Assembly: GCA_964016885.1 (NCBI GenBank)
Contig: OZ024743.1
Coordinates: 213,962,001 to 214,026,000 of the forward strand
Length of the DNA: 64,000 nucleotides
Direction: 5' to 3'
Source of the DNA: Eledone cirrhosa
Taxonomy: Eukaryota
Below are positions 16,619 to 63,084 of this stretch, in pieces. A program made the translations under genes and the position numbers. How positions within the stretch are numbered: the first letter of the stretch is position 1; each line of letters begins with the position of its first letter. The notes under the pieces were generated by a model that was not told the DNA's origin, did not search any database, and saw nothing but the letters and a program-made list of their open reading frames with translations.

Positions 16619-16654
16619 CTTTACCGGTTTCGCAGTTCTTCTGCTTTTCAAATG
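16619..16654 (-). ncRNA. Minimal type I HHR, U3-A8 core variant
   Basis: cat TTGAAAA gcag aagaa ctgc GAAA ccgg TA aag; perfect 4-bp stem II, palindromic ACCGGT stem III; same core as 63049-63084. Confidence 0.7.
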
Positions 16655-17507
16655 TAGAGTTGAGATGGAGGGTCTGTGGTTTTCTCACATCTGGTTGGTC
16701 TATGAATGTTGTCTCATATGGAAAAAAGTGGTTCGAAATACCAGGTTTTTAGAGAAGTAATTTGATTGGTTGGTCAATAATTATAATACATTTCGTGCCA
16801 GTTCGCGTTACAAAGTTCTTCAAACAGGGGGGGGGCGGGCACCGGTTGTTTTTTCATATATGAGTGTTTGAATTTCTTTTTACCTTAAAAAAATGGGCTC
16901 AATAAGGCTTTTTTTAATAAACGTAATTTGACTGGTTATAAATGAAATTATGGCTGTCACGTGAACAAGTTTTCATTAAATTTTCGCGCCCTTATTTGGA
17001 AATCTATTCTGTAGCCTTTTTAGAGAATTTTATGACAAGCAAAATATGATGGTCAAGAGAAATGGGATGGGAGAATTGTTCTGGTTCAGTGAATATGGTT
17101 AGTTCGCTGGGGTGTCAGAATTCAGATTTTCTATTGAAGTAAAGAAAGTAAAGATGTGTATGTTTATTTGTGTGCTTGTGTGCTTGTGTGTGTGTGTGTG
17201 TGTGTGTGTGTGTGTGTGTGTGTGTGTATTGGAAGATGATTCTATTAGTAGAAATGGGGGAGGGAGTTGTGTGTATATGGGTGTTATGTGTGTGTGTGTG
17301 GGAGTATGTTAAGATGGAGAGATATATATTTTGTGTGTGTGTATATACGTGTGTAGGAAAGTGATTCTATTAGTAGAAATGGCGGAGGGAGTTGTGTCTG
17401 TGTATATATATATATAACAAAGGAATTGTGGTAAGGAACCAGATGGACCATAACGCACTAGAGTAATCAATACTTAGGGTAGTTGAGTGGAAATAGGAAA
17501 AAGTATG

Positions 17508-17603
17508 GCCCCGACGACAGAGCTCAAGCCGTTTCGGCGGCTATTTCTGGACTAAATTAGAATGTTTAGCTTGGTGAATTAATAGCCGAACTTGTCAAGG
17601 GGT
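17508..17603 (-). ncRNA. Type I HHR, U3-A8 variant
   Basis: acccc TTGACAA gttcggcta..tagccgcc GAAAC ggcttgagctctgtc GTC ggggc. Confidence 0.75.
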
Positions 17604-18390
17604 ACTTCCTTATATGGGCAGATTGTAGTTGTCAAAAGGATTGGTTAAAATTTGTTGTAAACACAAACAAGTCTATCATGGCATTTGGTGGGAGGTAGGA
17701 GTTGCTGAATTTGCCTGTAGAACAATAGGGGAGTGAGTGGAGCGGTCAAGCGTTGAAAGTGATATGTATACATCAGATTCTAAGGATAGTGTATGAAATG
17801 GAGGAGGGAGGTTATAGAATAGGTAATTCGAATGAGAGTAGGAGACAATAAAAGATAATAGAAATAAATAAAAAAAAATATATATATATAAAATTAGATA
17901 GTGAGAAATGAATAAAACAAAATCTCAATGCTAACTGACAATTCCAGGTTAATAAGTTGTGAATAGAAAAAAACTTATAGAAATTGAGTAGTAACAAAAC
18001 TGATACAAAATTAAAGGGGTCGTACACATCTGCTATAAGTAGTTAGTAAAACGTAATCGGCCAATTCTATCTTAAAATTACAGGGGTGGGGGAACTGAAG
18101 CTACAGAGGCCCGATGGGCTGCATCGGGGTGGACGAAAGGGGAAAAGCAGACGAGGAAGAAAATAGGAGGTCGAAGGAAGTGGTTGGATGAGACGGGGGA
18201 AGAAGAAGACAAAGAGGAAAAGAAAAGAGATACATCTATCTTTGTCTTCTTCTTCCCCCTGTCTCATCCTACCACTTCCTTCCACCACCTATTTTCTTCC
18301 TCCCACCATATGCCATGATAGACTTATTTGTGTTTACAATAAATTTTAACCAATCCTCTTGACAACTTCAATCTTCCCATATAAGGAAGT

Positions 18391-18487
18391 ACCCCCTTGA
18401 CAAGTTCGGGTATTTATTCACCAGGCTAAAAAGTCTAATTTAGTCCAGAAATAACCGTCGAAACGGCTTGAGCTCTGCCGTCGGGGT
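18391..18487 (+). ncRNA. Type I HHR, U3-A8 variant
   Basis: cccc TTGACAA (18397-18403) gttcgg..ccgtc GAAAC (18460) ggcttgagctctgcc GTC gggg. Confidence 0.75.
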
Positions 18488-18564
18488 CATACTTTTTCCT
18501 ATATATATATATATATTATTCAGAATATTAATAAACGAAGACATTCACATAATCAAAATATATG

Positions 18565-18626
18565 TTTTATTATATATATTTCGAATGTACTGTGCTGTTT
18601 TTTCAGGACGTCCTCATCAGATAAAA
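18565..18626 (-). ncRNA. Type I HHR in short element with 23-bp inverted ends
   Basis: ttttat CTGATGA ggacgt..acattc GAAA tatata TA ataaaa; inverted repeat ATATTATTCAGAATATTAATAAA at ~18513-18535 / 18689-18711. Confidence 0.75.
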
Positions 18627-20450
18627 TACATGAATTGATGTATGACATACCTCAACGGACTTCATGGTTCAATTCCAGTATTGGCATATTTATTAATATT
18701 CTGAATAATATTAATAACTCCATTAATAACTATTCATTGAGTAATCAATAAACCATATTAATCTGTGGTTATATATATATATATATATATATATATATAT
18801 ATATATATATATATATATATATATAAATAAATATACATATATATATATATATATATATATAAATAAATATACATATATATATATATATATATATATATAT
18901 ACACATATATATAGGATGTATATATATATATATATATATATATATATATATATATATATATATATATATATATATATATATATATATATATATATATATA
19001 TATATATATGTATATATATATATATATATATATATATATATATATACACATATATATAGGATGTATCTGCGTTTGTGTGTTGTATGTTTGGATCGGATGC
19101 ATGACAAAATGTATATATCACACGATACAAGAATGGTGAGTTCATTATTTATAAAGCAACACCAAGTAAATATTTTCACACGAGTCGGGTATTATCTTCC
19201 CATTGATATTTCTCAGAAAATATCTTTACTTTAGAAAAACTGTGTAAATTGATGATTTGTTTTTCTGTTTCTTGTTTTCAATTCTGCTATGTTGCATAAT
19301 TCTTTGATGATAGAAATGAGTGACCTCCCATGTCCACAAATGATTGCTCCATAGTGAAATTAAATGAACAACAACAACTACAACAACAACAACAAAATAT
19401 CGCCCGAAAGAAATCAAGAAATAGGAAAATACTAACGACAAGAATATACGGTGACAAACAAAGAACAGTATCTATGCAATATTCCTAGACCAGCTCTCGT
19501 AAATGTGTTATGCTGTGTTGCACATAATTTGTGTGCAATATATTCAAAACATAGATCATATATTATTGAATATCATACAGGAATATTTACAACGAAAATG
19601 ATCCGATATGAATCATTAATGGATAATGCAGGATTCCTATATTTCTGGCGCTATAATACAGTTAAAAGTTTTGGGGAATCAGTTTTAGCATGCTGTTATA
19701 GTTAATCCCCATATAAGAATTGAACACGCTTTAATATGTATCTAAGATTAGCGCTTATTTCTAGGCAGTCGTGCAACATTTTACGGGCCATTTCGTTACC
19801 TACAAAGGGAAACTTACTTCATTGTACTGTTTGATTTGTCTATATTTATCTTTGATTCGTTGTACTTTTATAGAATTCTAATGAAATATCCTTCATCAAA
19901 GTTTTTTTTACTTTTCCCGGTTAATATCTAGCCAATTTTCATCGCTAAAATGAATTTGTGTTATTAAGAGTTTTTGGCCGTTGATTATTTACTGAATTTC
20001 ATAGCTCGGAAACCTGCCTAAATGTGAGGACTGCTGACCCAAGAGCTGGTATATATCCTACATAACTGGAAGGATTATGGATTATAACTAACCAGCGAAA
20101 ATTCACAACCTTGCACCCAAAACCTATCCTCACCCTCATTGTAAAACTCACATCTCCATAATATCTTTCTAACACGCCGAAAAAGAAAAGAAGAATAACA
20201 TCCCTTCTCCGAAGATATAAGCTCTATAACATCTATCCAGCACAACAAAACCTTATGTAAATACCCCACTGTATCATTCCTGCCCACATAATCGATTCCC
20301 TATCCCTAAGCACAAACAAGTTCCTTCTATTTTGCACAAGATTAAGTATATGTTATCCTTCTTATCTAATTGAACTCGCACAAATTTTCTCCCCTCCCAT
20401 AAGAACACCCAATTTGAACTTTAATCCACACGATATACGTACGTAAGATA

Positions 20451-61379: not shown

Positions 61380-61782
61380 TATGTAGATATATATGTGTAT
61401 ATGTATATATATATATATATATATAAATATATATATATATATGTATATATATACATATATATACATATATATATATATATATATACATATATATACATAT
61501 ATATATATATATATATATATATACATATATATACATATATATATATACATATATATACATATATATATATATATATATATACATATATTATACATATATA
61601 TATATATACATATATATACATATATATATATATATATATATATATATATATATACATATATATATATACATATATATACATTTATATATATATACATATA
61701 CATTTATATATATATACATATACATATATATATATATATATATATATATATATATATATATATATATATATATATACATATA
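61380..61782. repeat. (TA)n tract
   Basis: Direct reading. Confidence 0.95.
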
Positions 61783-61889
61783 TAGAGAAAATTGAGGTTG
61801 GTAATGGCAGATGGAATATATAAGAGACAGAATACTTTTTTGTGAAAAAACATAATTTTATAATGTAAGGAAATTATAAAGGGTATAAA

Positions 61890-61935
61890 AAATGACCGGT
61901 TTCGATGGGTCTGCAAAAGCCATCTTTGCAAATGT
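61890..61935 (-). ncRNA. Minimal HHR, U3-A8 plus A6C variant
   Basis: acat TTGCAAA gatgg..ccatc GAAA ccgg TC attt; 5-bp stem II, weak stem I. Confidence 0.55.
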
Positions 61936-62332
61936 TGATTAATATTAAGAAAAATTAATAATACGAAGAGTTAAAATTTGAGATTTGAAAATTCAAGTAT
62001 AAAATTCATTGTGGGATTTCATAGCAGTTTTCATCTAGGTAGCAAGAACAGGTTGACTGCTGTGTCCCAACCAACCAACCAACCAGAAATTTATAGATTT
62101 GTAAATTTGTAAATTTATAAATATATAATAAATTGAAGTGAAAGCAAGGTGGTGCGTGTGTTTCTTATTGGCAACATGACCCCCCCAAAGTATAAATATA
62201 TATATATATATATATATATATATATATATATATATATATATATATATATATATATATATATATATATATATATATATATATATATATATATATATGTATA
62301 TATGTATATATATGTATATATATATGTATATA

Positions 62333-62803
62333 ACGAAGGATATGTGGTAAGGAACCAGGTGGACCATAACGCACCAAAGTACTCAATACTTGAGGTAGTA
62401 GAGTGGGTAATAGGAACCAGTAAGACCCCGACAGCTGAGCTCAAGCCGTTTCGACGGCTAATTCTGGACTAAATGAACATTTATCCTGGTATTTAAATAG
62501 CCGATCTTCTCAAGGGGTAATTCCATATATGGTCAAAGTGATTGTCAAAAATCAGTAGTAATTCTGTGGTTGCAAATTAGTAGGGGAGATGGTGGCTAAA
62601 CCTGCTGGCAGGTTTAGCCACCATCTCCCCTACTAATTTGCAACCACAGAATTACTACTGATTTTTGACAATCACTTTGACCATATATGGAATTACCCCT
62701 TGAGAAGATCGGCTATTTAAATACCAGGATAAATGTTCATTTAGTCCAGAATTAGCCGTCGAAACGGCTTGAACTCAGCTGTCGGGGTCTTACTGGTTCC
62801 TAT
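62333..62803. mobile_element. Family B near-perfect palindrome with complete U3-A8 HHR on each strand
   Basis: Arms 62410-62605 / 62608-62803, one mismatch seen; HHRs 62425-62518 (-) and 62695-62788 (+): acccc TTGAGAA ga-t-cggcta..tagccgtc GAAAC ggcttga(g/a)ctcagct GTC ggggt. Confidence 0.92.
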
Positions 62804-63048
62804 ATATGTATATATATATATATATAGATATACATGTATATATGTATATATATATGTATATATAAAGATTAGGATTGGTGCTCTGAAATCGCGATGTATA
62901 CATGCATGTATGTAAGTATAGTATATTTGGCAATATACCCTATGTTTAATTAAAACAGTTTGAAGACCTTGCACTATCATTTTTAAAGTAGTGACTATGT
63001 CACCTACTTCTTTTTTCAGCAAAAGTATATATATATGAGAAGCATATA

Positions 63049-63084
63049 TATTTGAAAAGCAGAAGAACTGCGAAACCGGTAATG
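63049..63084 (+). ncRNA. Minimal HHR, U3-A8 variant
   Basis: tat TTGAAAA gcag aagaa ctgc GAAA ccgg TA atg; downstream 63085-63160 matches reverse complement of ~16545-16618. Confidence 0.7.

Follow-up and report, generated by a model that had tools for sequence, protein, structure and literature searches.

Motifs and families in the window

The window analysed here, a 64 kb stretch (G000:C4:213962001-214026000) of a 3.0 Gb animal genome in which (TA)n and (CA)n abound, contains twelve motifs resembling hammerhead ribozymes in which the 3-8 pair of the catalytic core is U-A. Judged by their sequence and surroundings, they appear to be type I hammerheads in the pseudo-long terminal repeats (pseudo-LTRs) of Penelope-like elements (PLEs) that have (TA)n as their insertion sites, a context that was missing from the earlier note on this DNA. 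All twelve motifs named in that note were located (Table 1), far above chance expectation. Their density is about 13 times the genome mean of 14 per Mb, and the window is a nest of insertions.

In each motif helix II, nearly always starting with G10.1-C11.1, is followed by a GAAA-like segment, helix III, a UH site and the closing strand of helix I, which is the type I order. The motifs fall into six families rather than the three proposed earlier: A, B and four short types with a CCGG helix III, namely C1, C2, C4 and C5 (a further one, C3, lies outside the window). The type I core (positions 3-9, G12-A13-A14-A15.1, U16.1-H17, three helices, helix I open) is present in A, B, C1, C2 and C5, and the Watson-Crick 3-8 pair is U-A in every family.

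Some details of the earlier description need correction. The UUGCAAA core at 61931 had been taken as a variant of position 7, whereas the altered position is 6; other copies of its family have A6, so the A6C change is private decay. Two copies had been described as mutated in GAAA: one of them (42895, G12A) is indeed private decay, but the GCAA at 16218 is fixed throughout its family. Helix III is palindromic in family B (8 nt) and the C types (4 nt); in family A it is more than a short palindrome, namely a hairpin of 17 nt able to close within a single molecule. Helix I has only 2-3 bp in the C-type copies (16218, 16651, 61042, 61931 and 63052). At gathering scores Rfam matched none of the 17 window motifs, the five C3-G8 ones included. 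When copies are folded singly, most z-scores are weak (-0.02 to -1.8), and one copy reaches -3.4 with a fold that is not a hammerhead. The five C3-G8 motifs, which serve as a comparison class, have a long irregular helix II and a 6-nt palindromic helix III and represent several Hydra-type families.

Table 1. Hammerhead motifs and associated features of the window
Feature	Position	Strand	U3 or C3	Predicted cut after	Remarks
C4 (Neptune-like PLE) insertion, 5'-truncated	14273..16399	+			between (AT)n runs; short inverted tail, endonuclease 3' end 14382-14586, 3' untranslated region, pseudo-LTR
C4 hammerhead motif	16215..16250	+	U3 16218	16247	A8 16223, G12 16238, C13 16239; GCAA at 16238-16241; CCGG helix III; helix I of three U-A pairs; C11.1 to U in this copy
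C1 minimal hammerhead	16619..16654	-	U3 16651	16622	one mismatch in helix I
Family A hammerhead, C7 subfamily	17509..17602	-	U3 17598	17513	helix II 56 nt; left arm of inverted insertion
Family A hammerhead, C7 subfamily	18393..18486	+	U3 18397	18482	right arm
Family B hammerhead	42219..42309	-	U3 42305		helix II 62 nt; helix III 8-nt palindrome; one helix I pair broken
Family B hammerhead	42807..42901	-	U3 42895		private G12A; tandem partner of 42219..42309 copy, 590 bp apart
Family B partial copy	51456..51539	-			inverted arm; 5' core absent
Family B hammerhead, intact	51874..51963	+	U3 51879	51958	
C5 minimal hammerhead	61010..61044	-	U3 61042		additional base after A9; helix I 2 bp
C2 hammerhead	61890..61935	-	U3 61931	61894	private A6C
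Family A hammerhead (G7)	62425..62518	-	U3 62513		100% identity over 131 nt to intact element at L031
Family A hammerhead (G7)	62695..62788	+	U3 62700	62783	three-way junction is minimum-energy fold
C1 hammerhead	63049..63084	+	U3 63052		copy truncated just 5' of core
C3-G8 PLE hammerheads, inverted pair	8262..8470	.	C3 8310 (-), 8410 (+)		comparison class
C3-G8 hammerhead, canonical	18569..18626	-	C3 18620		
C3-G8 hammerhead, canonical	52620..52689	-	C3 52681		
C3-G8 hammerhead, canonical	60279..60351	+	C3 60290		

Abundance of the U3-A8 core

A strict descriptor that leaves positions 3 and 8 free, so that all 16 combinations are allowed, found six U-A motifs in the window, one C-G and two others (A-A, G-U), while 30 dinucleotide shuffles of the window (200-nt blocks) gave no U-A. 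The same descriptor found six U-A, two C-G and no other pairs in 59 evenly spaced 10-kb genome tiles; ten shuffles of the tiles yielded no U-A and a C-G mean of 0.1. The U-A matches thus lie far above the shuffled controls. Genome-wide we counted exact pattern matches, that is motifs and not elements, since an inverted insertion holds two or more. With U3-A8 there are 18,472 in the CCGG class (20 with the reversed-pattern control), 12,771 in A plus B (193) and 11,414 in C4 (0), summing to 42,657 against 213 in the controls. Within the CCGG class C-G accounts for only nine, and the four Y-R pairs together for 18,731, which leaves by subtraction about 250 mismatched.

It could be argued that such short motifs are chance matches in AT-rich DNA. 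The GC content across the genome stretch is indeed 18-43%, and relaxed descriptors do yield false matches in satellites (four of ten U-A, all in L120). The shuffles without a single U-A and the reversed-pattern controls nevertheless refute this reading, the motifs also hold a fixed place within elements, and we give it a negligible probability.

How large a part of the ribozymes carries the variant was estimated from the tiles with a relaxed descriptor, which is blind to C4, together with the exact patterns. The tiles contain 12 C-G, six true U-A (after removal of the four L120 satellite matches), two U-G, two C-C and ten A-G motifs, eight of the last from one microsatellite. C3-G8 families are therefore at least as common as the variant, and the single C3-G8 class counted genome-wide has 15,332 matches; classes with a pure (UA)n helix III are also numerous in the genome. 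U3-A8 makes up roughly 40% of the PLE hammerheads (14 against about 20 per Mb), with a wide error given the small counts.

Hence the earlier statement that the variant is abundant and is missed by a search for CUGANGA alone is true. The ribozyme content would indeed be underestimated by such a search, but by roughly 40% and not by an order of magnitude. The abundance is not new either, because U3-A8 hammerheads of PLEs and their large numbers were already described in PMC4209133; the headline of the earlier note is correct, yet already known. In the annotation of such genomes, ribozyme counts need YUGANRA plus a relaxed position 13.

Carrier elements and the origin of the U3-A8 pair

The family A copies of the window are 99% matches to the ends of an intact element that lies at G000:C1:437.20 Mb and consists of tandem units of 3,531 bp (99.97% identical), an inverted 5'-truncated arm and a (TA)n end. 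Its open reading frame (ORF) of 717 amino acids from the ATG begins 190 nt past the predicted cut and has an RWK-like motif, DKT, a CxCX5C linker, and CxxC and CxH at the C end, with no CCHH. Compared by eye with the proteins of PMC8557442, these motifs place family A in the Hydra clade of PLEs. Its reverse transcriptase (RT) and C-terminal GIY-YIG domain were recognised by motif; Pfam gave no match for this ORF and none above cut-off for the decayed ORF pieces of the window. The family departs from the usual traits of the clade in having U3-A8 and not C3-G8, a long helix II and the 3,531-bp length, which are descriptive and non-diagnostic traits. Both the consensus and the copy at 62690-62795 fold into a three-way junction. 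Pseudo-LTRs, partial tandems, an inverted 5'-truncated arm and an optional tail were seen at five loci (L031, L039, L176, L231, L241). Copies of family A terminate in (TA)n about 20 and about 100 nt beyond the predicted cut (two end sites, 5285 and 5365). Three very short inverted insertions of the family (8778-8898, 22267-22304, 49194-49280) are reduced to the tail and the 3' half of the ribozyme.

Hydra-type ORF pieces occur in 11 of the 59 tiles (L097-L155), and the Hydra-type clade is a major component of this genome in spite of its absence from Pfam matches. Decayed ORFs of other Hydra-type families lie in the window at 31497-33617 (-), 37503-39492 (+), 43779-44525 (-) and 53525-53767 (-), with no ribozyme that could be linked to them; an inverted repeat of 1.5 kb (36080-37567 / 39587-41103, 91% identical) surrounds one such ORF. 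Further Hydra-type ORFs, one of them the closest relative of family A, are found at L098, L178, L206, L245 and L097. No ribozyme was detected downstream of these by the descriptors used, and they may carry further core variants.

Family B consists of non-coding units of 593 bp, arranged in tandem and inverted copies as in family A. It is classed as a non-autonomous PLE-type element, likely moved by a PLE, and no autonomous parent of B, C3 or C5 was found. The basal helix II is similar by eye in A and B, and there is no BLAST cross match between the two. Tandem repeats of 518 bp that contain CUGACGA cores and have inverted copies in the manner of PLEs (20569-21972; relatives at 41.5-42.0, 47.3-48.2 and 49.5-50.1 kb) probably form another non-autonomous family.

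C1, C2 and C4 each have an RT-endonuclease (RT-EN) ORF of Neptune/Nematis type, which the motif follows at a distance of about 1.0-1.7 kb; in the window the endonuclease end of C4 is 1.65 kb upstream of the motif. These proteins are mutually about 50-59% identical and about 21% identical to that of family A. The RT and C-terminal GIY-YIG of C4 and C2 are supported both by motif and by Pfam (RVT_1, E 1.9e-7, for C4; GIY-YIG, E 3e-4, for C2). GxKF, DKG, the CX2-5CxxC linker and CCHH are complete in C4 and partial in C1 and C2, and by these motifs we assign the three families as Neptune-like, leaving Neptune and Nematis unsplit. The wording 'Neptune-like' is chosen because C4 deviates from the single-ORF type, the form in which endonuclease-bearing PLEs are described: five complete units contain two overlapping frames (L298:2977-4284 and 4218-6569; also L281+282, L283, L285 and L288). 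The upstream ORF has 436 amino acids, with no Pfam match and no usable ESM Atlas match, and overlaps the RT-EN frame, which has 784 amino acids in the -1 frame and its first methionine after the GxKF motif. This arrangement suggests a frameshift or splicing. A short homologue of the upstream ORF lies before the RT of C2 (L214:9232-9345).

We turn to the claim that position 7 varies freely while positions 3 and 8 change together. The first part stands, as all four bases occur at position 7 within family A, where positions 3 and 8 are invariant in all 35 distinct copies (some were retrieved via core patterns, which biases the set). The second part holds with a reservation: U-A outnumbers the mismatched pairs of the CCGG class by far, but because copies inherit the pair, the support consists of two inferred lineage events and not of twelve copies. 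Both events come from a tree built on 16 natural ORF stretches, of which 11 have a known ribozyme and five are U-A rows. The tree needs two changes of the 3-8 pair, both U-A groups have C-G relatives in it, and the U-A rows as one clade are rejected by the approximately unbiased (AU) test (p 1.06e-8). The rejection of this clade means that U3-A8 likely arose twice, to judge by the tree separately in the Hydra-type and the Neptune-like lineage. It has to be held against this that five of the 16 rows have no known ribozyme and that three branches are long.

Alternatively, U3-A8 arose once and a pseudo-LTR module later moved between Hydra-type and Neptune-like elements, which have (TA)n targets in common and are found nested within one another. 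We consider this quite improbable, as A/B and C-type motifs have no similarity beyond the core (no cross matches at E 0.01 in the window) and helices I, II and III all differ between them. Since only the core is alike, two independent double substitutions are the simplest reading, and we favour two origins over the less likely swap. That a GC-rich helix III might make up for U3-A8 fits the large classes; C-G families with GC-containing palindromes exist, however (L169, L172), and this claim was dropped.

Family C4, cleavage and known systems

Family C4 differs from all others at position 13, where C occurs in 11,414 matches and another base in 125, as counted with a slightly narrower pattern. 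The first 100 of these 125 have U 51, A 32 and G 17 times (hand count), a distribution expected for decay from C, and no ancestral GAAA-bearing subfamily was seen. GCAA is thus fixed in C4 and not a product of decay. Of the RT matches of this family 131 were scored; their identity is 98-100%, and the 784-amino-acid frame is open in 48 (hand count). Next to such loci a pattern free at position 13 found C13 in 32 of 32 motifs from 18 stretches, two stretches being without a motif. The five complete two-ORF units measure 4.6-4.8 kb and lie between pseudo-LTRs, both of which contain the motif. By these features C4 is young and autonomous.

In the C types helix II shows two-sided changes at 10.2-11.2 in seven of 14 sequences and at 10.3-11.3 in six of 13. 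Its cells are paired to 97.6%, the covariation score was reached by none of 500 shuffles, and pairing falls to 25-46% in slid controls. Between C4 and C1, 81 of the 192 majority columns covering motif plus flanks are different, but only one of the 11 core positions is. The two-sided changes around a kept core, together with the near identity of the C1 and C4 cores amid such divergence, indicate that the motif was under selection in the past.

What fixed C13 means for the activity of C4 can be read in two ways. Substitutions of A13 cripple minimal hammerheads. C4 departs from the invariant A13 of the hammerhead consensus (PMC7151607, PMC3088659), and because C13 is fixed we call it hammerhead-like and not a proven member. 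We did not find a natural A13C in print, although the figures or supplements of PMC3088659 and PMC9901934, or studies of dimeric PLE hammerheads or of the 3-8 pair, may hold A13 variants. A second register for C4, using the GAAA of loop II and the next 6-nt palindrome, was rejected since it has neither U16.1 nor a helix II.

On balance we lean towards a C4 ribozyme that is weakened or dead rather than tolerant of the change, because the other U3-A8 families keep A13, helix I consists of three U-A pairs, and other systems seem able to do without cleavage. The opposite, that C4 tolerates A13C and is an active ribozyme in spite of changes at three core positions (U3, A8, C13), seems to us possible, with distinctly less confidence; perhaps the loss of G8 removes a ground-state G8-A13 pair and so frees position 13. 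G8:A13 is named as a pairing in PMC6257768, both C4 subfamilies and all motifs beside the young RT loci have C13, full tandem units are made, and the remaining core, the helix II pairing and the cut site are kept while the flank diverged strongly from C1. Nevertheless, as every other U3-A8 family keeps A13, U3-A8 does not generally free position 13. Doubtful though we find it, an active C4 hammerhead fixed in a young autonomous two-ORF PLE with more than 11,000 motif copies would mean that a ribozyme with U-A as its 3-8 pair can do without A13. Ribozymes with a GCAA core would then form a further class that escapes descriptor searches.

For the motifs as a whole we regard the following reading as probable: U3-A8 replaces C3-G8, tandem transcripts are cut slowly or with the help of a protein, and C4 has lost much of its activity yet spreads. 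In PMC6257768 the general acid is proposed to be the 2'-OH of nucleotide 8, and the general base G12, while the nucleobase at position 8 serves to pair with nucleotide 3; because nucleotide 8 would act through its 2'-OH, a Watson-Crick swap to U-A can keep the site. Natural U3-A8 and its activity in vitro were reported in PMC3088659. Family A is predicted to fold as a monomer and is the best candidate for monomeric cleavage, while B and the C types would likely act as dimers via the palindromic helix III, as in PMC4209133. Cuts at successive pseudo-LTRs would give RNA of unit length. The template that is reverse-transcribed may often be uncut at the 3' ribozyme or circular: because insertions of family A extend about 20 and 100 nt beyond the cut, the copied RNA should have passed the 3' ribozyme uncut or have been a circle. 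This agrees with the Anolis element, whose ribozyme is protein-assisted and dispensable for insertion in vitro (PMC11167929). C4 with its A13C would have lost much cleavage activity while its spread continues.

Several observations weigh against this reading. The minimum-energy fold of family B and of several copies lacks a hammerhead. None of the 16 pairs of family A shows a two-sided change, only 76% of the helix I cells of the C types are paired, and the links between ORFs and ribozymes are those of proximity on the same strand. Another hammerhead, subjected to full pairwise mutagenesis, regained activity with the G3-C8 swap alone (PMC9901934), so that U3-A8 can be weak and dependent on context. 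As to C4, its ten kept core positions, helix II, CCGG and UH could mean that it is still functional, and its subfamilies C4a and C4b, differing at 10 of 224 columns, are too shallow to judge current selection on the core.

One may go further and suppose that no U3-A8 motif cleaves usefully and that the fold is retained for another role, in protein binding or in the promoter region. Minimal PLE hammerheads are weakly active in vitro (PMC4209133), Anolis insertion is independent of cleavage with no RNA ends at the cut site (PMC11167929), Naiads thrive without hammerheads (PMC8557442), and the insertions described above end beyond the cut site. We hold this to be unlikely, given that protein identity between the families is only 21-59%, yet the catalytic positions G12, A9, the 3-8 pair and UH are retained across them.

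This genome is useful for a question that is open in PMC8557442 and PMC11167929, namely whether PLEs need the hammerhead. One genome offers a matched set: the motifs of the sister elements C1 (A13) and C4 (C13) are nearly the same, and family A combines a U3-A8 ribozyme that is, by its fold, competent as a monomer with an intact element and C3-G8 relatives. C4 is thus a natural test of the need for cleavage. If it is dead, a ribozyme-null PLE made more than 11,000 motif copies in vivo, in support of dispensable cleavage; if it is active, the hammerhead consensus needs widening.

The closest known system is that of the Cercyon PLEs of Schistosoma mansoni (PMC4209133), which likewise have type I motifs in pseudo-LTRs, U3-A8 cores including UUGAUAA and UUGAAAA (both printed in the supplement), a palindromic helix III, mostly truncated single copies and a similar share of U3-A8: about 1,300 minimal hammerheads against about 2,000 with C3-G8, or about 39%, in Schistosoma PLEs. 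Unlike these, the present genome has about 30-fold more copies, two PLE clades, a 54-62-nt helix II in A and B, a closable helix III in A and a family with fixed A13C. Family A resembles the Hydra-clade PLEs of PMC8557442 in its protein motifs, the C-terminal GIY-YIG without CCHH, the (TA)n targets and the tandem and inverted structure; its unit of 3.5 kb compares with generally less than 3 kb there, and File S2 of that paper has C3-G8 in 26 of 26 rows, which were collected with a canonical descriptor that would miss U-A. C4 shares GxKF, DKG, the CX4CxxC linker, CCHH and the C-terminal endonuclease with the Neptune/Nematis PLEs of the same paper, from which its additional 436-amino-acid upstream ORF sets it apart. 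Family B is comparable to non-LTR retrozymes (PMC7229834; bioRxiv 10.64898/2026.07.22.740005) as a non-coding tandem unit with a type I hammerhead, but has 593 bp instead of 170-400 nt, PLE-style inverted arms and the U3-A8 core. The first natural U3-A8 was described in PMC3088659 together with core variants of low but detectable activity; those given in its available text are A6C, insertions and U15.1-A16.1, with no substitution at position 13 such as that of C4. New here are two RT lineages with U3-A8, a Hydra-clade form with a long helix and a family with fixed A13C.

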